From: an uncultured Acidobacteriota bacterium
Lineage (GTDB): Bacteria > Acidobacteriota > UBA6911 > RPQK01 > JAPXNP01
Direction: 5' to 3'
Length of the DNA: 64,000 nucleotides
Assembly (NCBI GenBank): GCA_963777605.1
Contig: CAVZRV010000007.1
Coordinates: 1,056,001-1,120,000, forward strand
Shown: positions 406 through 58,794 of the stretch, piece by piece
Position numbering within the stretch: the first letter of the stretch is position 1
Layout of the letters: each line of letters begins with the position of its first letter
Position numbers and translations under genes: made by a program
The notes under the pieces: generated by a model
The model's input: the letters and a program-made list of their open reading frames with translations, nothing else
The model's database searches: none
What the model was told of the DNA's origin: nothing

Positions 406-3400
406 ATGAATGTAACCAAGTGGATCCAGGAGCACCAGCGCTCAATTCTATTTCTCTTGCTCCTTCTCGTTGCAGGAGGGGTTCTGAGCGCGTTGAGGCT
501 TCCGGTCGCCCTGTTTCCGCACGTTAATTTCCCCCGAATCCAGGTCGCCCTTGACGCCGGGGATCGCCCTGCAGACAGAATGGGAGTGGAGGTCACGTTC
601 CCTGTCGAGGAGGCGGTTAGGGCCGTCCCCGGGGTCCGTCGGGTGAGGTCCACGACGAGCCGGGGAGGTGCCGATATCTCCATCAATTTCGAGTGGGGCG
701 AAGACATGATGACCGCCATGCTGCAAGTGGAATCGGCGATCAATCAAGTCCTCTCGACTCTGCCTGCTGGTACCAGGTTCACGGTCCGCCGCATGGATCC
801 CACGGTCTTTCCGGTGCTCGCCTACAGTCTGAGATCTGATTCCCATACGTTGGTTGAGCTTCGTGACATTGCCGTGTATCAGCTGAGGCCGATTCTCTCC
901 ACCGTAAATGGCGTTGCCAGTATCGGTGTTCTGGGAGGGGCCCAGGAAGAGTACCGGGTCACTGTCGATCGCTCAAAGCTCGCCTCGTTCGGACTGTCTC
1001 TCGGCGATGTTGCCCGAGCCCTGTCGGCTTCCAACGTGATCACCGCAGTCGGACGGCTGGAACAGCATTACAAGCTTTACCTGGTTGTCTCGGATACCCG
1101 GTTCAGAAGCCTCGCGCAGATCAGGGAGACGGTTCTTCGTTCCGGGGAGAACGGGATCGTACAGCTCGATGACGTGGCCAATGTAAGCCGGGAGACGGCA
1201 CCCCACTGGACGCGAGTCACTGCTGATGGCCAAGAGGCTGTCATCTTCCAGGTTTTCCAGCAACCTGGGGGCAACACCGTCCAGATCGCCGGCGAGCTGA
1301 AGTCGAAGTTGGCCGACTTCCGGAGTCGACTTCCATCCGGAATTCACATCGCTAACTGGTACGATCAAAGTCAGTTGATCCTCGCTTCGGCCGGAAGTGT
1401 TCGGGACGCCGTCATCATTGGAGTTGTACTGGCCGCCCTGACCCTGCTTCTTTTTCTCCGAAACCTCAAGATCACGCTGATCGCCATAATCGCGGTGCCC
1501 AGCGTTCTATCTGCAGCTGCACTCTTACTCTATGTCCTCCACAACAGCTTCAACATCATGACCCTGGGCGGCATGGCGGCGGCGGTTGGACTCATCATCG
1601 ACGATACGATCGTAATGCTGGAGCACATTATCCGACGGCTTCGCGGCGACCCGAACCGGCACGAGGGGAGGGTAATGATTGCGGTTCAAGAGTTTACGCG
1701 GCCCCTCGTGGGATCCTCGGCATCCACCGTCATTGTTTTCACTCCATTGGCTTTCCTGTCCGGAGTTACGGGCGCTTTTTTCAAAGCGCTGTCCCTTACA
1801 ATGGCTTCGAGCCTGATCATCTCTTTTTTTGTAGCCTGGCTCGCGGTTCCGCTGTTGGCGAACCATTGGCTTGGCGAAAAAGATGCCCGCCAGAGGGAGG
1901 CGGGACTGGTCACTCACTGGCTGCACGGAATCTACAAGCGTGGCATGACGCCGCTGTTGCGTTATCCCTGGCTGGTTGTTCTCCTGATCGTTCCTTTGGC
2001 ACTGGCGGGATGGTTCAGTTACCGTCATTTGGGTTCCGGCTTCATGCCGTCGATGGATGAAGGCGGATTCATTTTGGATTATCGCGCACCCTTTGGAACC
2101 TCTCTGACCGAAACCGATCGGCTGCTTCGACAGGTAGAGCAGATCTTGAAAGCGACTCCCGCGGTTCAAACCTACTCGCGGCGGACCGGCATTCAGCTTG
2201 GTGGGGGGATTACCGAAGCCAATGAAGGCGATTTCTTCGTCCGGCTGAAGCCTTTTCCCAGGGAACCGATCGATTCCGTGATCAATCAGGTCCGCTCCCG
2301 AATCGAGCAATCCGTACCGGGACTGCAGGTCGAGATGGCACAGTTGATGGAGGATCTGATCGGAGACTTGACGTCGGTTCCACAGCCGATTGAGATCAAG
2401 CTTTTCTCCGATGACTCGAGCGAGCTGTACAAAATGGCTCCAAAAGTTGCCCGGGAAATCGAGAAGGTCCAGGGCGTTGTGGACATCAAGGATGGCATCG
2501 TACTTGCCGGAGATGCCATCGATCTCCAAGTCGACCGTGTGAAGGCTTCACTCGAAGGAGTCGATCCCGAATCCGTGACTCAGACTCTGTTCAGCTACTT
2601 GAGCGGATCCGTCACAACCCGGGTTCAGAAAGGGCCGAAAATGGTCGGTGTCCGAGTCTGGATCCCGAAAACTGCTCGCTCAACGGAAGGGAACATTGAA
2701 GAACTACTTCTCCATGCCCCTGACGGCCACCTCTTTCCCGTCAAGCGAGTTGCCACGGTTTCAGTGATCAACGGCCAACGTCAGATCATGCGGGAAGACC
2801 TTAAGCGAATGGTCCCAGTTACGGCACGGATCAGCGGGCGAGACATGGGGTCGGTCGTCAGGGACATCAAGCAGGTTCTTCAGCGCCCGGGCATGTTCCC
2901 GCAATCGGTTTATTACGATTTTGGTGGATTGTACGCACAGCAACAGACGGCATTCGCCGGCCTGCTGATCGTGATCATGGCCGCAATTCTTCTCGTGTTT
3001 CTCCTCCTGCTGTTCCTATACGAGCAGTTCCGCGTTGCACTGGCGATCCTGTTTACAACCCTGACGGCGATGACGGCGGTCTTCATTGGATTGTGGTTGA
3101 CGGGTACACAGATGAACATTTCTTCGATGATGGGAATGACAATGATCGTCGGCATTGTCACCGAGGTCGGCATCTTTTACGTATCCGAGTATTACGATCT
3201 GCCCGGTGACACGACTCGTGCCACAGTTCTGATCGAAGCCGGAGTCAATCGGATGCGACCAATCGCCATGACAACCTGCGCCGCGATCCTGGCGCTGCTC
3301 CCGCTCGCGTTGGGGATCGGACAGGGGGCAGCTATGCAGCAACCGCTGGCGATAGCCATCATTTCTGGTCTGTTGGTCCAGCTTCCCCTGGTTCTCGTAC

Positions 3401-3459
3401 TTTTGCCGGTCCTTTTGGAAATTTCAAGGGTGAGGCAGCCCCACCATAGGAATTCTTGA
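406..3459 (+). CDS. Efflux RND transporter permease subunit (AcrB/CzcA family)
   Basis: 1017 aa; LPVALFP N-terminus, GLIIDDTIV TM4 motif, RMRPIAMT and QPLAIAIISG C-terminal motifs. Confidence 0.95.
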   Translation: MNVTKWIQEHQRSILFLLLLLVAGGVLSALRLPVALFPHVNFPRIQVALDAGDRPADRMGVEVTFPVEEAVRAVPGVRRVRSTTSRGGADISINFEWGEDMMTAMLQVESAINQVLSTLPAGTRFTVRRMDPTVFPVLAYSLRSDSHTLVELRDIAVYQLRPILSTVNGVASIGVLGGAQEEYRVTVDRSKLASFGLSLGDVARALSASNVITAVGRLEQHYKLYLVVSDTRFRSLAQIRETVLRSGENGIVQLDDVANVSRETAPHWTRVTADGQEAVIFQVFQQPGGNTVQIAGELKSKLADFRSRLPSGIHIANWYDQSQLILASAGSVRDAVIIGVVLAALTLLLFLRNLKITLIAIIAVPSVLSAAALLLYVLHNSFNIMTLGGMAAAVGLIIDDTIVMLEHIIRRLRGDPNRHEGRVMIAVQEFTRPLVGSSASTVIVFTPLAFLSGVTGAFFKALSLTMASSLIISFFVAWLAVPLLANHWLGEKDARQREAGLVTHWLHGIYKRGMTPLLRYPWLVVLLIVPLALAGWFSYRHLGSGFMPSMDEGGFILDYRAPFGTSLTETDRLLRQVEQILKATPAVQTYSRRTGIQLGGGITEANEGDFFVRLKPFPREPIDSVINQVRSRIEQSVPGLQVEMAQLMEDLIGDLTSVPQPIEIKLFSDDSSELYKMAPKVAREIEKVQGVVDIKDGIVLAGDAIDLQVDRVKASLEGVDPESVTQTLFSYLSGSVTTRVQKGPKMVGVRVWIPKTARSTEGNIEELLLHAPDGHLFPVKRVATVSVINGQRQIMREDLKRMVPVTARISGRDMGSVVRDIKQVLQRPGMFPQSVYYDFGGLYAQQQTAFAGLLIVIMAAILLVFLLLLFLYEQFRVALAILFTTLTAMTAVFIGLWLTGTQMNISSMMGMTMIVGIVTEVGIFYVSEYYDLPGDTTRATVLIEAGVNRMRPIAMTTCAAILALLPLALGIGQGAAMQQPLAIAIISGLLVQLPLVLVLLPVLLEISRVRQPHHRNS

Positions 3460-3494
3460 TATTCGAGGTGATGTGGAGTCGATAGAAGGAAACG

Positions 3495-3515
3495 AAAAGC
3501 CCATCTCGAGGCTTC
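3495..3515 (-). terminator. Possible intrinsic terminator between convergent genes
   Basis: Minus strand reads GAAGCC-N8-GGCTTTT just after the stop at 3519; short stem. Confidence 0.3.
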
Positions 3516-3518
3516 TGC

Positions 3519-4004
3519 TCAGTCAACCAAAGTTTCGGCAGTGGGACTCTTGAAGGAAATCCACAGCGGGTTCAACCATCCGATGATGGTTCCGTAGATC
3601 AAATGGAGGATCAACGTAACGAGCAAGTATTTCGGGCCTGGCGCCAGATGGAAAGGATCGTCTGGAGCGAGTTGACCGGCCTCTCCGAATCCGAAAAGAC
3701 CCCATCCTATGATGGGACTGTAAATGAGCATAAGGGCGAGCCAAAGACACAAGGCCAAACCAATCCCTCTGGCGATGTTGGTCTTCTCTTGAAAGAGCTG
3801 TACGAGCAGAATTGACCAGAGGGCTCCATACCCTAAATGGACGAGTAAGGCGAGAGGGCCGACATTCACTCCCAGTCGCTGAAGAAATGCCGCCGACGGG
3901 GTGATATTGAAGGGCGCCATTCCACTGTGGATTCCCAGCATCATGATGATGAACATCACGACACTTCCGACAATTCCGACTAGAGCCGGTTTCAACTTCT
4001 GCAC
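3519..4004 (-). CDS. Hypothetical membrane protein, about 4 TM helices with two intramembrane His
   Basis: 161 aa hydrophobic ORF, GTG start with AGGGAG upstream; LVHLGYG and ILHLIYG helices. Confidence 0.75.
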   Translation of the reverse strand: MQKLKPALVGIVGSVVMFIIMMLGIHSGMAPFNITPSAAFLQRLGVNVGPLALLVHLGYGALWSILLVQLFQEKTNIARGIGLALCLWLALMLIYSPIIGWGLFGFGEAGQLAPDDPFHLAPGPKYLLVTLILHLIYGTIIGWLNPLWISFKSPTAETLVD

Positions 4005-4370
4005 TTGAGTCTCCCTTGCAAATTTGTGCGGGGCAATTAATAACTACCATACACGCTATTTGAGAAGAGATAAAAGCGAGCATGGACAGGGCGCTCTTCT
4101 GTCCACGAGAAGTCCCAGGACGGTAGCGCGTTCCCAACTCCTGCTACGGCGGAACGACATAGCCGAATAGCATTGGTGATCGTTGATTTTTGAGTCGTGT
4201 CCTGGAGGCGAAAGCGCGGGATCCGGAGGATTGTTGAGATCCCGATCATTTCGTCCCGCAGAATGGGACTTGGGTTTGGTGAGACGCCGGAAGGAGATAC
4301 CGTCACTGAAGCTGGCACGGTTCGGCCAGTTGCCTCGCGCCCGGCAACAGAGGGGGGACCGCGCGATCGA

Positions 4371-4479
4371 ATGCCCGGTGAGAGGTAACGGAAGCTCTCG
4401 CTTCCTGACCGTGCCCGAACCGTTCCGCGGTGGGCAAGAGCGGAAGCTGCCGCTTCCGACACTCCATATTAAAGTGGCG
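4371..4479. repeat. REP/REPIN-like dispersed repeat, copy 1
   Basis: Aligns over ~110 bp with 58686..58794; two GGAAGC-N4-GCTTCC hairpins. Confidence 0.8.
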
Positions 4480-4672
4480 TTCTATCCACACCCACGTTGC
4501 TTGTACCGGCATCCGGCTTTCCTCCACCTTAACAGCCGTCAGAGAATCACCCGCCGCACCTGTACCGGGCAAAATGGTTGAGGCCTTGTGCCCCCCTGGC
4601 GCCTGTTGCGATTTCTCGTCAGGTGCCCGGGAGCGCAAGGCCCCGTGGAGTCACTTGTTGCAGCGACTGAGG

Positions 4673-6001
4673 TCAGGGTTGAACCGGTGAGTCGGCCTGG
4701 ACAGCGACCTGCTGGGTGGTTGTGTTGCCGACAGCGGCTTCCGGCCCGCGTTTTCCAACACCGTCCCAAGCCAGGCCAAGGGCCAGCATGAAGATCGCGG
4801 CGGCTCCCGCGAGGACCCACTTCATGACCCCGAGATTGGATCGACGGAGTTGTACCACGGCCGGGAGTTCATCGGTCAGATCCTCGGGAGTTGCTTCCGG
4901 GAAGATGTCCAGGTAGCGAACCGCCAAGGCGAAGATGAGGCACCCGATCCCGACGATGCTCAGGGTGACAGCCGCCTCGGACAGGCTGGGCATGTAGGAG
5001 AAGCCGGCTGCCCGCTCCATCCCGGTGATGCTGACGTTCAGGCGGTTGAAGATGAAGCCCGAGATCACCATCAGGGACGACACGAAGAGGCCCAGCTGGT
5101 TCTGGCGAATTTTGGGGATGGCCAGGAAGATGATCGGAGCAATGACCCCCAGGATCATTTCCGCCTGGAAGAGTCGGGCTTCGTAGTTGCTTCCCAGTGC
5201 CAGCGGGACGACGCCGCGATGGATCAGGTCCTGCACGCGCAGAACCAGAAACATCGACAGCACCCAGACGATGACCTTCCCCAGGTCGCTCAGCAGGGGA
5301 AGCTCAAGCCTTCGGCCGAAAGCGCGAAAACTGAGGAACGATTCGAAGATCGTCATCGCACAACCCAGCGCCACCGCCGACACGAAGAAGAAGAAGGGCA
5401 GCAGCGGGGAGTACCAGAGCGGGTAAAGCTTGCCGGGGACGATCAGGTAAAGCGTCCCCAGGGACGATTGGTGCAGCGAAGAGAGGACCACGCCCGCAAT
5501 GACGAGCGGGATCATCAGGCTCTTGACGACTTTGAGCGGCTTGGCCCAACCGAGCTTTTGAAAGACAGCCGGGCTGAACTCGAGGGCGAGGACCGTACTG
5601 TAGAGCATGACGCACCAGCCCACCTCGAACATGACCGAGCGCGGATTCCACATGATGAGCGGATGCCAGATCCGGTCGCTGCGGCCCAGGTCGAACATGA
5701 TTGCCACGACGACCAGTGAATAGCCGAGAAACGCGGTGAGGATCGTCGGGCGAATGATAGGGCGAAATCGCTCGATGTGGAAAACGTAGACGATCGCACT
5801 GATCGTGAATCCGCCCGCCGCCAGGGCGACCCCGCAGAGGACATCGAAGCCGATCCAAAGTCCCCAGGGGAACTGGTCGCTCAGGTTCGTACTGGCCCCA
5901 AGGCCGTGAAAGAACCTCAAATAGGTGCTGTAGAGTCCGCCAATCAGAACTCCGACCAGGACAATCCGCCAGAAAGTAGGTTTTGGAAGACTGATATTCA
6001 T
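4673..6001 (-). CDS. NrfD-family membrane subunit (HybB/HmcC-like)
   Basis: TNLSDQFPWGLWIGFDVLCGVALAAGGF, DLGR..RIWHPL, FEV.WC and LHQSSLG motifs; about 10 TM plus an extra C-terminal TM and linker. Confidence 0.92.
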   Translation of the reverse strand: MNISLPKPTFWRIVLVGVLIGGLYSTYLRFFHGLGASTNLSDQFPWGLWIGFDVLCGVALAAGGFTISAIVYVFHIERFRPIIRPTILTAFLGYSLVVVAIMFDLGRSDRIWHPLIMWNPRSVMFEVGWCVMLYSTVLALEFSPAVFQKLGWAKPLKVVKSLMIPLVIAGVVLSSLHQSSLGTLYLIVPGKLYPLWYSPLLPFFFFVSAVALGCAMTIFESFLSFRAFGRRLELPLLSDLGKVIVWVLSMFLVLRVQDLIHRGVVPLALGSNYEARLFQAEMILGVIAPIIFLAIPKIRQNQLGLFVSSLMVISGFIFNRLNVSITGMERAAGFSYMPSLSEAAVTLSIVGIGCLIFALAVRYLDIFPEATPEDLTDELPAVVQLRRSNLGVMKWVLAGAAAIFMLALGLAWDGVGKRGPEAAVGNTTTQQVAVQADSPVQP

Positions 6002-6768
6002 TTCGACAACTCCCCTCCCTCTGCGAGGCGAACTTCTTCACGGCGTTTGGTAATCCACCAGATGCCACCGAGGAATACCGAAGCAGCAACAGAGAACCGG
6101 GGTATCTTCTCAAGAACCGCCGCGGTCAGCTCAGGCAGCGGCTCGTTTCCAAGATTTACCGGGAAGCCGAGTTCTGCGGGTGAAACGTCTGAAATCACCA
6201 GCACTGATGTGCCACCGATTTCATGTTCCCCGTAGATGTGGTTGTAGTAGGTGTCGGGATCGGCCGCGATGCGGGACTTGGCTTCTGCCAGCATCTCGTC
6301 GCGGTCCCCGAACATGGTCGCGCCGGCCGGACAGGCTTCAGCGCAGGCGGTGGGTTGGCCCTGAGCCAGCCGGTCCGCACACATCGTGCACTTCCTGACC
6401 TTGGGGAGCCGAGCTTGCCAGGTGTACTTGGGTACGTCGAACGGGCAGGCCTGGACGCAATACCGGCAACCCATGCAACGGTCTTCGTGATAGACCACCG
6501 GACCCGCGGCCGTCTTTTCCAGTGCTCCAACCGGGCAGACGGAAACGCACGTGGGATCGACGCAATGCATGCACATTCTGCGGAGGTAGCGGTCGTCCTC
6601 GTCGACGAGAATCGTAAAGGTGTTTTCAGAGAGATGATCGTTCAGAAAGTCATCCGAAGTCTCAGGTAGTCCGTTCTTTTCCTTGCAGGCCTCGTAGCAG
6701 GAACCGCAACCGACACACTGAGTCGTGTCGATCAGCAGGGCCTTTGGGCTTGAACCAGTGGTAGCCAT
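5998..6768 (-). CDS. 4x[4Fe-4S] electron transfer subunit (HybA-like) with C-terminal membrane anchor
   Basis: CVGCGSCYEAC, CMHCVDPTCVSVC, CMGCRYCVQAC, KCTMC...ACAEAC; HIYGEHEIGGT; stop overlaps the NrfD start. Confidence 0.93.
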   Translation of the reverse strand: MATTGSSPKALLIDTTQCVGCGSCYEACKEKNGLPETSDDFLNDHLSENTFTILVDEDDRYLRRMCMHCVDPTCVSVCPVGALEKTAAGPVVYHEDRCMGCRYCVQACPFDVPKYTWQARLPKVRKCTMCADRLAQGQPTACAEACPAGATMFGDRDEMLAEAKSRIAADPDTYYNHIYGEHEIGGTSVLVISDVSPAELGFPVNLGNEPLPELTAAVLEKIPRFSVAASVFLGGIWWITKRREEVRLAEGGELSK

Positions 6769-6832
6769 TTGAATGCCGTCTCCTTCCAGGTCGTTATGAT
6801 GGGATCTTCGTGCAGAGACTGATACACGAGCT

Positions 6833-7510
6833 CTACATCTTCAGGAACTGAGTTTCGAACTCCGCAACCGTTGAAGAGTCGACGTGACGAAGTGCACCAG
6901 CGGCAAGGGTTCCACCATCGGGCATCGCCGGAACGGCGACAAGTTCGTCTACCCGCGGCGAATCAATCAGGAACGAGCGCATCCTGGCCAGTTCCGACTG
7001 GAGCCACTCAACGGCATTCTTGCCGAGACGAAATGCTCCAATTTCTTTCTGCATAGAGGACGGTTCGATCTCGCAGATCCAGTGCCGGTAAGGCGAGGAA
7101 CTGATAACCGGCGGTTCTTCAGCCGCTTCCTGGTTAATGCGGGTAACGGTCCCGGCAACAGGACTGGCGAAGCGAATCTGGCGATCGCCAAACTGTGCCG
7201 AAAAGAGGCCTTCTCCGGTCTTCATCGAAGAACCGGCCTGGGGAAGGCTGAAGCCGGACAATTTGCCAGTCAGCCCGGTTATCAGGGAATCGATCCCGAT
7301 CCTGACCTTTCCATCTTCACGAAGGGCAACCCAGGTGTGGCCGGGGGAAAGGAACAGGCCGCCGGGGACTTCCACTCCACCCAGAGTGAAGGGTTCAAGC
7401 GCCCTCTCCGGTGAGGCAGCAGCCTCGCGTTGCCGATCCTGGACAAACTGAACAACGCCGTCGGCCAAAACAAAACCAATGAGCGTGAGCACAACAAGTA
7501 ATGCAACCAT
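6833..7510 (-). CDS. Membrane-anchored glycine cleavage H-like protein lacking the lipoyl lysine
   Basis: GHTWV, VRIGID, LP..G and SPVAGTVTRIN..PY.HW GcvH motifs; N-terminal hydrophobic helix; AQFGDR where ESVK is expected; GGAGG RBS. Confidence 0.85.
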   Translation of the reverse strand: MVALLVVLTLIGFVLADGVVQFVQDRQREAAASPERALEPFTLGGVEVPGGLFLSPGHTWVALREDGKVRIGIDSLITGLTGKLSGFSLPQAGSSMKTGEGLFSAQFGDRQIRFASPVAGTVTRINQEAAEEPPVISSSPYRHWICEIEPSSMQKEIGAFRLGKNAVEWLQSELARMRSFLIDSPRVDELVAVPAMPDGGTLAAGALRHVDSSTVAEFETQFLKM

Positions 7511-7575
7511 TCAACACCTCCAAAATATGTCCGTTCTCCGTGGCAGACGGAATACATTCACCGCAGTTCTTACTC

Positions 7576-7590
7576 GCAAGATCCTTGCCA
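7576..7590 (-). promoter_or_regulatory. Sigma54 (-24/-12) promoter of the GcvH-like/HybA/HybB operon
   Basis: TGGCAAGGATCTTGC, exact spacing of TGGCACG-N4-TTGC, 65 bp upstream of the start codon. Confidence 0.75.
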
Positions 7591-7687
7591 AACTTGCGGT
7601 GAATTTCTGGAATTCGATTAATGCTTATGGCGCAAGGGTTTACGGGGGTGGGGTGATGAAAAATTAGCCGCCCGGAAGAATCCAGGT

Positions 7688-7783
7688 TGGAGAGATATTC
7701 AACACCGCTCTGCCCGGAGCTTTCCAGTGGAGCGTAAGTGGCCTGTTATCAGCCGCTTGCAGCGTATGTTGAAAATCTAAACA
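7688..7783. promoter_or_regulatory. Candidate pair of upstream activator sequences
   Basis: TGTTGAATATCTCTCCA (minus, 7688-7704) and TGTTGAAAATCTAAACA (plus, 7767-7783), 100-190 bp upstream of the sigma54 site. Confidence 0.45.
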
Positions 7784-7816
7784 CTGACTGTGAGGATTCT
7801 CAGCAGTTTGGCGATC

Positions 7817-9236
<1,420 letters not shown>

Positions 9237-9483
9237 GATGACTCCCTGCGGATTGTTGAACCGGACTCGAATTCCCTGCTTCCAGCCAACGTTAGCAAGT
9301 CAGAGTCCGGAAAGCCAGTTGTCAACATGACTTCTGGGCATGACTTCTGGGCATTCCCGATGACAAGCCGCGGGAGCATCTGCTAGTGTTCAGAAGGGTG
9401 AGGGATCCATCGGGAACTCGAGCGGGCGGGGGCAATCATCTGCCCGGCGGTATCGTGCCGGGACCAAAAAGGACGGAAGATCG

Positions 9484-10323
9484 ATGACCAGCCGGGAATT
9501 GGGCCGACAAGCGGGACTACTGATCGGGTTGCTGTTTTGGTGGTCCGGCAGCATGGGAGGCCTTTATGCTGCTGAACTCAAGCAAGAGACGCTGGACGCG
9601 TTCAAAAAGTACGTGGAGGCGGCCGAGGCCAACATGCAGCTTCGGGTCCGGGGCGACAAACCGTTTCTTCTCGTCGACGCGCAGCCGGAGAAGCGGAAAG
9701 AAGTTCTCACCGGGCAGGTGCCGATCGAACATCTCAATGAGCTGCCGGAGTTCGACGTTCCCGACGGAATGATCCACGACTGGGTCGGATCGGTATTCAT
9801 CCCGGCGACCCCGGGGCAGGTTCTCGAGGTTCTCCGGGACTACGATCACCACAAGGACATCTACCCGGAGGTCATCGATTCAAGGACGATCGAATCCTCA
9901 CCCGACAAGCTCACAGGGTATCTCCGGCTCAAGAAGAAGAAGGTGATCACGGTAGTCCTGGATACCGAGCACGAGGTGTTCTACCAGCAGCTTCCCGAGG
10001 GGCGCTGGTACATCCATTCGTACAGCACCAGGATCAACGAGATCTCCGATTTTGGCGAGAAGACCCAGAAAATCCTTCCGGCCGGAGAGGGACATGGCTT
10101 TCTTTGGGAATTGTATGCGTACTGGTTTCTGGAGCCGATGGAGGGGGGCACGATCGCCGAGTGTCGCGCAATCAGCTTGACCCGCGATATTCCGTTCGGG
10201 TTGGGCTGGATCATCAAGCCCTTTGTTACCGCGCTGCCGCGGGAATCATTGACCCAGACCCTGGCGGCTACCCGCGACGCCGTAATCAAGCGGGAACAAG
10301 CGACCTCAAGTCCAAAAGAGTGA
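9484..10323 (+). CDS. Hypothetical exported protein, possible START/SRPBCC-like fold
   Basis: 279 aa with signal-like N-terminus; host-like codon usage; fold call is tentative. Confidence 0.75.
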   Translation: MTSRELGRQAGLLIGLLFWWSGSMGGLYAAELKQETLDAFKKYVEAAEANMQLRVRGDKPFLLVDAQPEKRKEVLTGQVPIEHLNELPEFDVPDGMIHDWVGSVFIPATPGQVLEVLRDYDHHKDIYPEVIDSRTIESSPDKLTGYLRLKKKKVITVVLDTEHEVFYQQLPEGRWYIHSYSTRINEISDFGEKTQKILPAGEGHGFLWELYAYWFLEPMEGGTIAECRAISLTRDIPFGLGWIIKPFVTALPRESLTQTLAATRDAVIKREQATSSPKE

Positions 10324-10381
10324 ACGCGAACGCCAAAACCGGATCACCAGGGAAGTCACATCCTGCCCGAAACCCGAAACC

Positions 10382-11296
10382 CTACCGCAATTCCTCGAGC
10401 AACGCTTCGGCCAACCGGGCCAGGGTCACGGTGGCTTCGTTGTCCGGAGTCCAACGCCGGTCCTCGGAATCCTGGGCAAACAGGCTCAGAACGAAATCGC
10501 CATTCGGTGAAGACACCACGGCGATGTCGTTGCGGACCCGGTCGAGGGCACCGGTCTTGTTGGCCACCTTGTAGCCCTCCCACCGGGGGCCGACCAGGTT
10601 TCGGGGAACCTGCTCGAGGTCGCGTTGTTTTCCCAGGATCTCCAGCATTTTCGAGGTGGACTCCCGGTCTCCCAGTTCCCCTTTCTTGAGCCGCTCCATG
10701 ATAGCCAGCATGTCGGCGGCAGTCGTCACGCCGAGTCCGTAGTTCGCCCGTTCCTCGGGAAGCCCCTCGGGCGCGGGACGAAACACCTTCTTGTTGAGCC
10801 AGGTGTCGCGAAACCCGAAAGCGTGCATGCGCTGGTTCACAGAGTCAATTCCCACCTGATCGATCACCATGTTGGTGGCCGAATTGTCACTCAGTACGAT
10901 CATCAGGGTAATCGCGTCGAGAATAGTGAATTCCAACCCGTCCGAAAGATCCTGCAGGATTCCGGCACCGGGCACCCGGTTCGAGTTGTCGAAGTGGATC
11001 CGCTCCTGCAGGTTGAGGCGGCCTTCGTGGGCCTGCCAAAAGGCCTCGATCATGATCGGGACCTTGATCACGCTCGCCGTCTGCACCCGGCTATCCGGCC
11101 GGTAGGCAAGCGTACGTCCCGAGGTAAGGTTTTTCGCGGCAAAATACAGTTGACCGTGAAATCCCTGGACGATTGCCTGAATGGGTGACGGCAGCTCCTC
11201 CTTCAGCGATGCCCTTGAAAGGCTCTCTCCAAGCGTGGCCGGAACGAAAAAGCCGACCAGGACGAGAATCGCGATGCTTCGAGTCGATGCACTCAT
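10382..11296 (-). CDS. Serine hydrolase, class A beta-lactamase-like
   Basis: SxxK (ASVIK), SDN and KTG motifs; signal peptide. Confidence 0.9.
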   Translation of the reverse strand: MSASTRSIAILVLVGFFVPATLGESLSRASLKEELPSPIQAIVQGFHGQLYFAAKNLTSGRTLAYRPDSRVQTASVIKVPIMIEAFWQAHEGRLNLQERIHFDNSNRVPGAGILQDLSDGLEFTILDAITLMIVLSDNSATNMVIDQVGIDSVNQRMHAFGFRDTWLNKKVFRPAPEGLPEERANYGLGVTTAADMLAIMERLKKGELGDRESTSKMLEILGKQRDLEQVPRNLVGPRWEGYKVANKTGALDRVRNDIAVVSSPNGDFVLSLFAQDSEDRRWTPDNEATVTLARLAEALLEELR

Positions 11297-11946
11297 CGGC
11301 TGGCCAGAATGATTCCATCCCCCCGGCCTCCCCCGCTCTCGTTGGCGCGGGCGTCGGGGAACTGGCGAACTGCAAACTTCAAGTAAGCACGGTGATCGGA
11401 AGCGGTTTCCCGGAAATGCCCGACCAGGGCGACCAGAAATCCAACAGCGGAGACGATGGCGGAAACCGGGAGATTCGCCATTTCTTTTCGTGCCGCTTCG
11501 CGCAGTTCCTCAATCTTCTCGGTGAGAGTGCGGGCGAAGGACTGAAGGAATGGGTTGGAGGAACGGTGCTCGTAGATGATCCCCCGGCTTTCCGTTTGGA
11601 AGTTCTCCTGAAGCAGGGAAAGAGTGTCGAGCACATCCTGGTCAGTCAGCGAGCGGACCTGGCAGGCATATTCGGCCAGGTAATACTCGATCTCCTTGAT
11701 CAGGGGAAGCTGGCTTTCCAGGGCGGTCAGTAACTGGGAGCGACGGGTAGGCTCGTCGATCGACTCGAAGAGCGAGTTGTAGGCGCGTTTCCACTCGTGC
11801 TCGATCCCAACTCCGAGGTAGCTGCAATCGTTGGGGCAGGGAATCTCCAGAACCCGCTTCTCGCCACAGCACTGGGTGCAGATGTTTTGCCCCATTGCGG
11901 GACAGGGACGCTTGCCTTTGCGCTGATTACAGGACGGACATTTCAC
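11293..11946 (-). CDS. Hypothetical protein with Cys-rich, probably Zn-binding N-terminus
   Basis: CPSC..RPCPA...ICTQCC...IPCPNDC; overlaps the serine hydrolase start by 4 bp. Confidence 0.8.
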   Translation of the reverse strand: MKCPSCNQRKGKRPCPAMGQNICTQCCGEKRVLEIPCPNDCSYLGVGIEHEWKRAYNSLFESIDEPTRRSQLLTALESQLPLIKEIEYYLAEYACQVRSLTDQDVLDTLSLLQENFQTESRGIIYEHRSSNPFLQSFARTLTEKIEELREAARKEMANLPVSAIVSAVGFLVALVGHFRETASDHRAYLKFAVRQFPDARANESGGGRGDGIILASR

Positions 11947-11960
11947 GGGACCAGTATACT

Positions 11961-11995
11961 TGCGAAGTGCGAATTACGAAGTGCGAAGTGCGAAT
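11961..11995. repeat. Heptamer tandem repeat T(G/A)CGAA(G/T) x5
   Basis: tgcgaag tgcgaat tacgaag tgcgaag tgcgaat. Confidence 0.9.
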
Positions 11996-13015
11996 TCATA
12001 GGATCAGCATTGCGTCGCCGTAGCTGTAGAACCGGTACCGCTCGCGGACGGCTGTCTCATAGGCGCATCGAATCAGTTCGGTTCCCGCGAAAGCAGATAC
12101 CAGCAGGAGCAGTGTCGACCCCGGCAGGTGGAAGTTGGTGACCAGCCCGTCGATGGCCGTGAACCTGAACCCAGGGTAGATGAACAGGTCGGTGGTGCCG
12201 CTGGCCTCGACAATCTTCCCGTGAGCTTGGGCCACATGCTCGAGGGTTCGGGTCGTGGTCGTTCCCACGGCGATCACGCGCTTTCCAGAATCCTGCTGCC
12301 CGCGGATGGCGGCAGCGGCGTCGGCAGCCAGGGTGAACGGCTCGGCATCCATCCGGTGATCCTCGATCCGCTCGGCCTCCAGAGGCCGAAAGGTTCCATA
12401 CCCGACATGGAGGGTGATCTTGCAGTGACGAATCCGGGCCAGGAGTGCGTCGGTGAAGTGGAGGCCTGCGGTCGGAGCCGCCACCGAACCGGTTTGCCGG
12501 GCGAAAACCGTCTGATACCTGTGACGGTCTTCGTCCGTTGCCGCTCTGCGAATGTAAGGAGGCAAAGGAACTTGCCCGAGCCGGTCCAGTTCAGCCCAGA
12601 ACCGGCTTCCTCCAGGGGAGAATCGGAGGATCCGCTTCCCCAGTTCGCCGACTGTTTCGACGACGGCTTCGAACCTCCCCTGCTCGAGGATCAACCGGGT
12701 CCCCGGGGGGCATCGGCGCGCCGGGCGGATCAGGGCCTCCCAGCAGGCCGCATCGACCGGCTGCAACAGAAGAATCTCGATTGCCGTCCCGTTCGGCTTG
12801 GTTGCGCGGAGTCGAGCCGGCAAGACCCGGGTATCGTTGAGTACCAGGAGATCATCCGGGAGGAGCAGCGCCGGCAGTTCGTGAAAGCGCTGGTGCGAAA
12901 TATCCCCCGTCGCCCGGTTGAGAACCATGAGGCGGGAGTCTTCGCGCCGTTCCGACGGGAACTGGGCAATCAGCTCCTCCGGCAAGCGGTACTCGAAGTC
13001 CGATCGATGCGGCAC
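11996..13015 (-). CDS. queA: S-adenosylmethionine:tRNA ribosyltransferase-isomerase
   Basis: LPEELIAQ, NDTRVLPAR, PLPPYI, AAPTAGLHF, TNFHLP, YRFYSYGDAM. Confidence 0.97.
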   Translation of the reverse strand: MPHRSDFEYRLPEELIAQFPSERREDSRLMVLNRATGDISHQRFHELPALLLPDDLLVLNDTRVLPARLRATKPNGTAIEILLLQPVDAACWEALIRPARRCPPGTRLILEQGRFEAVVETVGELGKRILRFSPGGSRFWAELDRLGQVPLPPYIRRAATDEDRHRYQTVFARQTGSVAAPTAGLHFTDALLARIRHCKITLHVGYGTFRPLEAERIEDHRMDAEPFTLAADAAAAIRGQQDSGKRVIAVGTTTTRTLEHVAQAHGKIVEASGTTDLFIYPGFRFTAIDGLVTNFHLPGSTLLLLVSAFAGTELIRCAYETAVRERYRFYSYGDAMLIL

Positions 13016-13032
13016 AGGATTCCGTCCGCCAG

Positions 13033-13887
13033 TTACGGCTGAGCCTCGTCGAGCGGGCGGATCTCGATCCTCCGGAAGAAGACTTCGGCACCTTCCGACT
13101 GGAACATGATCTTGCCGCTGTTGAACGTCGAATCGGTGAGGTGGTTTACTTCGATTCCGTTGACGAAGTTCGTAATCTCGTTACCGCGGCAGATTACGTC
13201 CAGCCGGGTCCACTGTCCCCACGGGCTTTCCACGTCAGCGATACCTCTGACGCCGATTACGTCCATCCAATCCGGGTCCCTTCCGAACCAGTTGATGCGG
13301 CCGCTGTCGAATTCCCGAACCTGTCCGCGCGGATCGTATACCCACTCACCGTCACGGTCCTGGCGCACGGTTGCCTTTGCTTTCGGAGAAAGGCGGGTAC
13401 CGTCTTCCTCGAATCCCGCGACCAGAATGATGTCGGCAATTCCGCCCTCGATGAGCTGGGTCTCGATCGACCGCATCCAGGGTCCGTTGAAGTCCTTGCC
13501 CGTGTTGCCGTCCTTACCCCGACAGTGGAGGAGGATGCCGCTGTCACGGCTGTGCGTCTTGCGATTTCCCCAAGTCAGAAATCCCCAGCGCATCTCGACG
13601 ATGAGGTGATAATCGCGGTACTCGTCCTTGGTCGTAAAGCCGCCCCATTCTTCCCCACTTACCCGGATTGCAGGGGCGCCGTCGATCCGGTCAACCACGG
13701 TCACGACCCGCATCGGATCTTCGTAGTGGTGGTTAACGATCCATCGGTAGAAGCCGTCCAGGTTCTTTCCGTTGAAAAGGACGATCGGCTTCGTCGGTGT
13801 GATCGGGGCAGCCGTTGCCGGCAGCCAGAAACAGGTTAGCAGGGCAGCAATGAAGACAGTCTTTTTGAGCATGGTGATAGGGTCCAT
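13033..13887 (-). CDS. DUF1080 (3-keto-disaccharide hydrolase-like) exported protein
   Basis: Signal peptide, LFNGKNLDG, RDSGILLH, FQSEGAEVFFR. Confidence 0.88.
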   Translation of the reverse strand: MDPITMLKKTVFIAALLTCFWLPATAAPITPTKPIVLFNGKNLDGFYRWIVNHHYEDPMRVVTVVDRIDGAPAIRVSGEEWGGFTTKDEYRDYHLIVEMRWGFLTWGNRKTHSRDSGILLHCRGKDGNTGKDFNGPWMRSIETQLIEGGIADIILVAGFEEDGTRLSPKAKATVRQDRDGEWVYDPRGQVREFDSGRINWFGRDPDWMDVIGVRGIADVESPWGQWTRLDVICRGNEITNFVNGIEVNHLTDSTFNSGKIMFQSEGAEVFFRRIEIRPLDEAQP

Positions 13888-58685: not shown

Positions 58686-58794
58686 ATGTCCGGATGAGAG
58701 GCAACGGAAGCTTTCGCTTCCTGATGGTGATCGAACCGTGCCGTGTCCGCAAAAGCGGAAGCTGCCGCTTCCGACACTCCAGATTGAGGTGCCG
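58686..58794. repeat. REP/REPIN-like dispersed repeat, copy 2
   Basis: Matches 4371..4479, including identical AGCGGAAGCTGCCGCTTCCGACACTCCA. Confidence 0.8.

Follow-up and report, generated by a model that had tools for sequence, protein, structure and literature searches.

The standard quinone coupler in anaerobic respiration is a pair made of an iron-sulfur (FeS) protein and an NrfD-family membrane protein, and the H-protein is the textbook lipoyl carrier. The nearest known pairs to the one studied here are HmcB/HmcC of the Desulfovibrio Hmc complex and HybA/HybB of Escherichia coli hydrogenase-2, with which it shares a tail-anchored four-cluster ferredoxin and a 10-helix NrfD-family subunit. 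Stand-alone tail-anchored FeS/HybB-NrfD-like modules with c-type cytochromes are also described, in the part at hand of a 2024 article in Microbiology (PMC10924467). We analysed a window of 64,000 nucleotides from an uncultured Acidobacteriota bacterium (contig CAVZRV010000007.1, positions 1,056,001 to 1,120,000), in which three tightly packed minus-strand open reading frames (ORFs), spanning 4673-7510 in the ORF listing, encode such a pair next to a protein with the H-protein (GcvH) fold. FeS/NrfD pair and H-protein fold are thereby joined in one widespread cluster. FeS/NrfD quinone modules with a GcvH-fold third subunit and a heme-kinase/sigma-54 circuit apparently form a widespread, undescribed variant.

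Family matches were calibrated with Pfam models and their cut-offs, and with NCBIfam equivalog models and theirs. The first protein of the trio carries an H-protein domain (Pfam GCV_H, PF01597, 52.3 bits for a cut-off of 22.2) and misses the GcvH equivalog models (TIGR00527, 44.3 versus 115.85 bits; NF002270, 49.1 versus 117). It starts with MVALLVVLTLIGFVLADGVV, which includes the helix MVALLVVLT... and is followed by basic residues. Its AlphaFold2 (AF2) model, made from an alignment of 111 relatives (pLDDT, the predicted local distance difference test, of 91), consists of a long N-terminal helix (residues 2-32), a linker, the H-protein domain and a helical C-terminal extension, which is specific to the family and contains a DGG motif. 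H-proteins come top when this model is submitted to Foldseek (1onl, 3a8i and 3ab9; E about 1e-11, TM-score, the template modelling score, about 0.9 on the target), and the top 21 chains, GcvH-L 5a35 among them, have TM-scores on the target of 0.76-0.92.

A first-pass annotation of this stretch had proposed a GcvH-fold protein with an N-terminal transmembrane helix and no lipoyl Lys, and the alignment agrees. When the protein is aligned with the canonical GcvH of the genome (ESVKAVSE), the lipoyl-Lys column holds an Asp, in a GDR hairpin. Across 148 family members, in an alignment restricted to proteins of 190-300 aa and without the truncated P0006, the commonest residues in this column are G (41), D (26), N (15), A (12), E (12) and S (11), Lys lying outside these six; the following column holds R in 99 members and K in 26. 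The canonical gcvH (…VESVKAVSE…) is located elsewhere in the genome, preceded by a GcvT-like frame (a label read from the translation). A role in glycine cleavage, or as lipoyl carrier, is ruled out by the absent Lys, and the conserved lipoyl Lys that defines LbpA and GcvH-L is missing too. These data support the view that the protein is a repurposed H-fold and not a lipoyl carrier.

The family is large. At E<=1e-3 a profile search collected 10,881 representatives, and at E<=1e-30 still 1,220 representative clusters; the best 150 representatives are mostly 213-250 aa long and cover the whole profile. A metagenome scan with the GcvH-like protein P0001 returned 8 distant loci only, at 26-37% identity. 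Members are labeled 'glycine cleavage system H protein' in databases, and the Protein Atlas gave only 'glycine cleavage H family' clusters, a name that is functionally wrong for the family and would inflate glycine-cleavage calls in metagenomes. Several of the best 150 representatives are fusions: P0112 combines the family-type N-terminal helix with a receiver domain and a GcvH-like domain; P0144 and P0153 have a signal peptide, an outer domain of about 330 aa, one helix and a GcvH-like domain; and P0037 carries three Lys-less H-domains on an FAD-oxidase/FeS/CCG (HdrD/GlcF-like) protein. P0112 and the P0144/P0153 pair have the architecture of signalling proteins, which is our main reason for reading the H-fold as a cytoplasmic adaptor. 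The fusions thus point to a putative role of this domain in protein-protein contacts during signalling.

The first-pass annotation had called the FeS/NrfD module an orphan. This is true inside the window and fails overall: the trio is part of a larger conserved cluster with a two-component system. A profile scan of species-representative genomes yielded 48 related loci, in which gene presence was scored by tblastn with the proteins of this genome. They come from Acidobacteriota, Ignavibacteria, Bacteroidota, Chlorobi, Chromatiales, Gemmatimonadota, Zixibacteria, KSB1, Latescibacteria and others. The FeS gene is found in 37 of the 48 loci, directly after the seed GcvH-like gene in 30, and both FeS and NrfD genes accompany the GcvH-like gene in 34; the neighbourhood survey thus shows co-conservation. 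A histidine kinase gene is present in 27 loci, a sigma-54 response regulator gene in 25, an M54 archaemetzincin gene in 21, and at least two GcvH-like genes in 33. From Pfam matches to 83 neighbours in ten loci, the gene order reads (Cys-rich GcvH-like)-transmembrane GcvH-like-FeS-NrfD-(GcvH-like)-(cytochrome c)-HAMP kinase-sigma-54 regulator-(M54). In this genome, the regulatory half (Cys-rich GcvH-like gene, second transmembrane GcvH-like gene, HAMP kinase, sigma-54 regulator and M54) lies at about 992.9-998.1 kb of the same contig (G000:C7), some 67 kb from the trio. Within the locus excerpt concerned (L054, G000:C7:986001-1002000), it occupies 6930-12134. An IS200-like transposase fragment comes next, at 12537-13184, and may be a relic of the event that separated the cluster from the trio.

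At shorter evolutionary distance, the GcvH-like gene and an FeS orthologue (62-77% identity) stand side by side in the same 6 of 30 relatives; in the other 24, neither the GcvH-like gene nor an FeS orthologue of at least 62% identity was found. These kin are not independent, and several of their assemblies are incomplete. Identities within the family are 72-78% for the FeS and NrfD proteins. A variant is seen in three metagenome-assembled genomes (MAGs) of Ignavibacteriales/Bacteroidota (L011, L017 and L049), where two transmembrane GcvH-like genes behind a sigma-54-like promoter are followed by a gene for a 194-aa protein, which has no Pfam match, with no FeS/NrfD genes within 8 kb.

The kinase of the cluster is a putative periplasmic c-type heme sensor. 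In 26 of 27 cluster kinases a CxxCH motif is present at residues 106-128, the exception (L053) being a different kinase, and residues C112, C115, H116, C155, C160 and H161 are invariant. The AF2 model of the sensor (pLDDT 89) has a PAS/Cache-like fold between two membrane helices, and with it Foldseek retrieves the sensor domains of WalK, KinD and DctB together with the heme-c sensors GSU0935 and GSU0582.

Does the GcvH-like protein bind the membrane pair? In the three-chain model its conserved N-terminal helix docks on NrfD helices 8-9, with an ipSAE (interaction prediction score from aligned errors) of 0.77, the best of 3 controls reaching 0.00. This mark is attained by 116 of 157 solved complexes and by 2 of 215 mismatched pairs. 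Between runs, at least 80% of contacts coincide, the pLDDT of the partner is at least 71, and the confident contacts join GcvH-like residues 1-21 to NrfD residues 277-284, 310-326 and 335-338, plus 10-11, 47-52 and 226. We know of no solved complex of the GcvH-like/NrfD kind, and memory of the model is therefore an unlikely source of this result. With helices assigned by eye, the model has the GcvH-like N-terminus on the outer face, with the H-fold domain on the cytoplasmic side, a predicted placement that agrees with the positive-inside rule, given the basic residues after the N-terminal helix. The multimer modelling is hence favorable to the earlier idea that the H-fold has been repurposed as an adaptor or signalling subunit, as are the absent Lys, the separate canonical gcvH, the co-occurrence with FeS/NrfD, the fusions, and the tie to kinase and regulator.

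The second protein of the trio is a Fer4_11 four-cluster ferredoxin, whose best NCBIfam matches, HmcB (241.7 bits, cut-off 420) and HybA (211 bits, cut-off 263), are below equivalog level. Aligned with E. coli HybA, of which residue 39 corresponds to its residue 10, it is 35% identical from that point on, and the first 38 residues of HybA have no counterpart. The ORF begins at the first start codon after a stop, 9 residues ahead of the first cluster motif. The 16 cluster Cys (C18, 21, 24, 28, 66, 69, 74, 78, 98, 101, 104, 108, 127, 130, 142 and 146) are invariant in 37 sequences, and the C-terminal anchor, hydrophobic at about 225-241 and then continuing with KRREE, aligns by eye with the anchors of relatives bearing a twin-arginine translocation (Tat) signal. 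The protein is thus, as first described, a 4x[4Fe-4S] protein with a C-terminal anchor and no Tat signal. This absence is general in its clade: among 39 FeS genes of related loci, 16 have RRxFLK-type signals (RN in L032) and 23 are Tat-less like that of the window, with no Tat or general secretory (Sec) signal in any of the 23; in 14 of them, the open frame extends no more than 9 codons ahead of the aligned start. The C-terminal anchor, with positive charges behind its helix, is common to both groups. Three Tat-less proteins (L019, L021 and L022) contain an insertion of about 45 residues between the third and fourth cluster motifs, and in two loci (L030 and L048) both types of FeS/NrfD pair, Tat-less and Tat-bearing, occur within 16 kb, with GcvH-like genes close to each.

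The third protein belongs to the NrfD family, as annotated (PF03916, 84.1 bits, cut-off 25.8), and again stays below the equivalog cut-offs of its best NCBIfam matches (HmcC, 317.2 bits for 550; HybB, 304 for 450). It is 34% identical to E. coli HybB and has, from helices set by eye, an 11th helix and a 29-aa heme-less tail in addition. With the list of quinone/proton-path residues of HybB given in the part at hand of a review (PMC8076601), mapped by hand, 8 of 10 are kept: D58, R89, Y99, D109, S129, E133, E148 and H184 of HybB correspond to D53, R84, Y94, D104, S122, E126, E141 and H177, and two are changed (S105 to A, S190 to T). These residues, as far as that source lists them, leave the first-pass view of a module 'rather than an enzyme' unsupported.

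The orientation of NrfD is deduced from its charges. Lys plus Arg residues in the N-terminus and even (cytoplasmic) loops, compared with odd (periplasmic) loops, average 17.6 versus 6.3 in 21 NrfDs of the Tat-less group and 16.0 versus 6.6 in 13 of the Tat group. In addition, a multi-heme cytochrome c domain with 3 or 10 CxxCH follows the 11th helix in 6 of 20 NrfDs of the Tat-less group, and in 0 of 13 of the Tat group. Because the bias is the same in both groups, and because of the C-terminal cytochrome c fusions, the sequences indicate that NrfD is N-in with the usual quinone region on the outer face. Together with the anchor charges, which are as in the Tat-bearing group, this speaks against the 'cytoplasm-facing' complex first suggested. 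On which side, then, is the FeS domain? A missing Tat signal does not by itself put it in the cytoplasm. Homology to the HybA/HybB pairs would place it outside despite the absent signal, and we judge the two sides nearly equally probable for the actual protein. The Tat-less clade raises the question whether a four-cluster protein can cross the membrane with no signal or visible carrier, and by what means.

One answer would be a Tat-exported partner. In agreement with the first description, no hydrogenase, molybdoenzyme or cytochrome c gene adjoins the trio, by Pfam matches and a check of neighbours. The genome (6.7 Mb, 96.7% complete) encodes tatC, and no periplasmic or [FeFe] hydrogenase was found in it. 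Its two [NiFe] hydrogenases are both of cytoplasmic types, one having NAD-linked Nuo51-type neighbours, the other a small subunit with no Tat motif and an HdrA-like neighbour, and a single molybdopterin-family match exists besides ActB of alternative complex III. A crude genome-wide scan for ORFs with RR signals gave 91 candidates. On inspection by eye, most of them had dehydrogenase- or isomerase-like N-termini, and ActB was also among them; no partner was evident, though such a scan does not exclude one. The only other NrfD-family gene of the genome is an ActC-ActD fusion of alternative complex III, adjoining caa3-type oxidase genes (L075, G000:C29:79001-91000), from which it follows that the organism also respires oxygen.

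The operon has a sigma-54 promoter in the place first proposed (Table 1), with a predicted transcription start near 7564-7566. A GG-N10-GC element at the proper distance, rpoN and an activator gene are all present in the genome, as is usual for a sigma-54 operon. The bare -24/-12 pattern is not rare in the window (5 seen, 2.1 expected) and therefore proves little alone; its conserved position is the stronger point. In the 300 nt before the first cluster gene, 27 of the 48 loci have a -24/-12 score of at least 9, compared with 191 of 3000 random windows, and 19 of 48 a score of at least 10, compared with 54 of 3000. Elements of related loci are mostly 70-95 nt ahead of the start; in relatives of the same family, the element is at 81-82 nt in three, at 126 nt in one, and absent in one.

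Two kinds of sequence could be the paired upstream sites noticed in the first pass. The heptamer TTCAACA/TGTTGAA, which forms an inverted repeat here, is present in 2-4 copies ahead of the orthologous operon in 4 relatives, and two copies within 120 nt are met at only 20 places in the genome, so that the pair is a candidate binding site for the regulator. The CTGGA..TCCGG dyads are not conserved in the relatives inspected and are the weaker candidate. A genome scan for two heptamers within 120 nt plus a -24/-12-like motif returned 6 places. One other of the 6, C7:766278, was inspected as a further regulon site and dropped as chance, the stretch having no intergenic character.

Table 1. Features of the trio and its upstream region (window coordinates)
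Feature	Coordinates	Strand	Description
GcvH-fold protein	6833-7510	minus	225 aa; N-terminal transmembrane helix, H-protein domain at about 50-160, helical C-terminal extension
HmcB/HybA-like ferredoxin	5998-6768	minus	256 aa; four [4Fe-4S], C-terminal transmembrane helix, no Tat/Sec signal
HmcC/HybB-like NrfD-family membrane protein	4673-6001	minus	442 aa; 10-helix core and 11th helix
Sigma-54 -24/-12 element TGGCAAGGATCTTGC	7576-7590	minus	80 nt ahead of the ATG of the GcvH-like gene
Candidate enhancer, inverted repeat	arms 7693-7704 and 7767-7778		heptamers TGTTGAA/TTCAACA
Two imperfect dyads CTGGA-N-TCCGGGC	7670-7727	minus-strand reading	42 nt start to start

In the explanation that we favor, the trio would form one membrane quinone/electron complex under sigma-54 and two-component control, with a GcvH-like adaptor; we give this account, taken as a whole, an even chance. 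An electron wire of the HmcBC/HybAB type, with four [4Fe-4S] clusters, would sit on an NrfD-type quinone/proton subunit, and the non-lipoylatable H-fold protein would be the third subunit, its N-terminal helix packed on NrfD helices 8-9 with the N-terminus outside. The activator of the operon would most likely be the NtrC-type response regulator of the dedicated two-component system, whose kinase may sense the periplasmic redox state through its PAS/Cache-like domain with c-type heme motifs, and so switch the module on. The module would then exchange electrons, in one direction or the other, between periplasmic carriers and the quinone pool, and the cytoplasmic GcvH-like domain may inform the signalling proteins of its presence or state. 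Should the adaptor reading be true, this would be a testable example of a membrane redox complex talking to a two-component system.

Several observations weigh against this account. The FeS subunit has no export signal and its route to its site is unexplained, which is a real difficulty; moreover, none of the 23 Tat-less clusters contains a Tat-bearing partner, so that a periplasmic FeS wire is not assured. In 11 of the 48 loci, GcvH-like genes occur with no FeS/NrfD genes within reach, although three of these 11 have less than 2.1 kb downstream. The GcvH-like protein is only 36-40% identical among relatives whose FeS and NrfD proteins are 72-78% identical, a pattern that may fit a fast-evolving accessory, and equally a loosely constrained one. 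The link between regulator and promoter is suggested by neighbourhood in other genomes and by the recurring heptamer. As to the complex model, confident contacts involve the transmembrane helix only and the H-fold domain has no placed partner, and with our own alignments and three chains the calibration of the tool holds only roughly. Finally, a search of sequencing runs for the locus found no RNA run, and only two DNA runs with 5-6% of its words.

The same clustering with kinase and regulator, the trio being often placed between the GcvH-like genes and the kinase gene, would also be produced if the FeS/NrfD/GcvH-like assembly were itself the input device of the two-component system, like a regulatory hydrogenase feeding its kinase. 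It would equilibrate with the quinone pool or periplasmic carriers, and its GcvH-like domain would inform kinase, regulator or protease, net electron flow not being its purpose. This accords with the multiple GcvH-like paralogues in a cluster (33 of 48 loci), with the fusions to receiver and periplasmic domains, with GcvH-like genes that stay near the kinase where FeS/NrfD are elsewhere (the regulatory locus of this genome, L026 and L027), and with the lack of a catalytic partner found in the genome. However, the conserved HybB quinone/proton residues and the strong constraint on FeS and NrfD (72-78%) seem to exceed the needs of a redox reporter, and the multi-heme cytochrome c fusions (6 of 20) resemble an electron inlet or outlet. 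We regard this as possible but rather unlikely. Much the same doubt attaches to a bolder proposal, in which Lys-less, membrane-anchored H-proteins would be a new cytoplasmic signal-transducing subunit, attached by one conserved helix to the NrfD module and passing the state of the latter to the heme-c kinase, the sigma-54 regulator and the archaemetzincin, which would make a respiratory-type complex a sensor as well across many phyla, and the Tat-less FeS clade would be exported by a novel route or lie on the 'wrong' face of NrfD: we put it forward tentatively, as one that could well prove wrong.

Alternatively, the signal-less FeS domain may have stayed inside, adjacent to the GcvH-like domain and tail-anchored beside NrfD, and relay electrons between cytoplasmic donors and the membrane. 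The lack of signals in all 23 genes of the clade, the short upstream frame in 14 of them, the lack of Tat-bearing partners in their clusters, the cytoplasmic GcvH-like domain (from the positive-inside rule and the model) and the failure to find a periplasmic or [FeFe] hydrogenase or a further molybdoenzyme in a 96.7%-complete genome would all suit such a relay. Yet NrfD is oriented as in the Tat-bearing group, its C-terminus being fixed outside by the cytochrome c fusions, and in the available part of the review (PMC8076601) both the quinone site and the FeS docking face of the family are on the outer side. NrfD has no cofactor for carrying electrons across, and the charged tail of the anchor, 15 to 60 or more residues, would need to cross the membrane. 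The complex model contains no confident contact between FeS and GcvH-like proteins, a weak argument, as the scoring covered the partner only. We consider the relay improbable. Most improbable of all, in our estimate, is an ordinary HybAB/HmcBC module, in which a Tat-exported catalytic partner encoded elsewhere carries the FeS protein as a hitchhiker, with the GcvH-like gene as a neighbour that has nothing to do with it. Export together with a partner is known for some signal-less, tail-anchored FeS subunits (FdnH-type, and FeS/HybB-like with a Tat-bearing [FeFe] hydrogenase, from the part of PMC10924467 at hand), and tatC is present; but such a partner is missing from the 23 Tat-less clusters, and the genome searches, with their cytoplasmic [NiFe] hydrogenases, no [FeFe] enzyme and one molybdopterin-family match besides ActB, yielded none either, in keeping with what the first-pass inference required. 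The GcvH-like gene, moreover, is co-conserved and its product is modelled as bound.

As to the surroundings of the trio, the FeS and NrfD ORFs overlap by 4 nt, and the upstream neighbour is the end of a Glu/Leu/Phe/Val dehydrogenase gene. This gene (7817-9236, minus strand) is broken into two ORFs, the first (8220-9236) containing the N-terminal domain and profile positions 1-128, the second (7817-8179) profile positions 169-229, which may reflect a frameshift, pseudogenization or a faulty assembly. Downstream of the NrfD gene, a 1.2-kb stretch with no credible gene is followed by an AcrB-type pump gene on the opposite strand. This spacer (3460-4672) contains a dispersed repeat, with notable pieces at about 4300-4486 and 3517-3583. 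About 30 of the 35 other genome places listed match the former over some 90-190 nt, at 72-87% identity; one copy is in the window near 58686-58794, and a run of copies lies just past the window end. The second piece, of 67 nt, has two further copies at 87% identity. An Rfam search over 3300-8000, spacer repeat included, gave no match.

How does the cluster compare with described systems? Relative to Hmc and HybAB, the FeS protein of the trio has no Tat signal, the hydrogenase, HmcA cytochrome and HmcEF partners are absent, NrfD is extended by an 11th helix, a GcvH-fold protein is added as third subunit, and scores remain below the equivalog cut-offs. The full-text literature gave no description of a GcvH-like/FeS/NrfD cluster, although the supplementary tables of PMC10924467, which were not covered, may list members; the NrfD review, in the part at hand (PMC8076601), lists no complex with an H-protein-like subunit. 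The modules of PMC10924467 resemble the trio, as far as that part of the article describes them, in having an FeS-NrfD tandem with no classical catalytic subunit, a signal-less FeS protein with a C-terminal tail, and, as in some relatives of the trio, a fused or adjacent cytochrome c. The same part reports 'no pattern of conservation' in the flanks of Tat-bearing FeS/NrfD tandems, and a signal-less FeS/HybB-like/[FeFe] hydrogenase module in which the Tat-bearing hydrogenase is the carrier, whereas the flanks of the trio are conserved (GcvH-like genes, heme kinase, sigma-54 regulator and M54) and no carrier is evident.

GcvH, LbpA of sHdr sulfur oxidation and GcvH-L of Firmicutes share the H-protein fold and the Pfam GCV_H match with our protein. 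They carry lipoate on a conserved Lys, whereas the present family has no such Lys and has an N-terminal transmembrane helix and a C-terminal extension. The literature on GcvH-like proteins deals with the lipoylated LbpA and GcvH-L; LbpA, in the part of PMC6067878 at hand, has two conserved Cys besides the Lys that bears lipoate. One locus (L023) comes from a Chlorobiaceae MAG. PSRLC3 of green sulfur bacteria, which two papers describe as a complex of two genes, is a suspected, tentative link.

On the regulatory side, the HoxBC regulatory [NiFe] hydrogenase with its kinase HoxJ, and PspA/PspBC with the sigma-54 activator PspF, couple a module of redox or membrane state through a dedicated adaptor. 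Our cluster may resemble them in its working only, with no relation in sequence, since the coupling proposed here is drawn from neighbourhood and fusions. Closer in structure are the Geobacter chemoreceptors GSU0582 and GSU0935 (Foldseek 3b42 and 3b47, 19% identity), which have a similar periplasmic PAS-like domain for heme c; in the cluster, however, the domain with CxxCH is part of a HAMP histidine kinase and contains another invariant motif, C-x(3-4)-CH.

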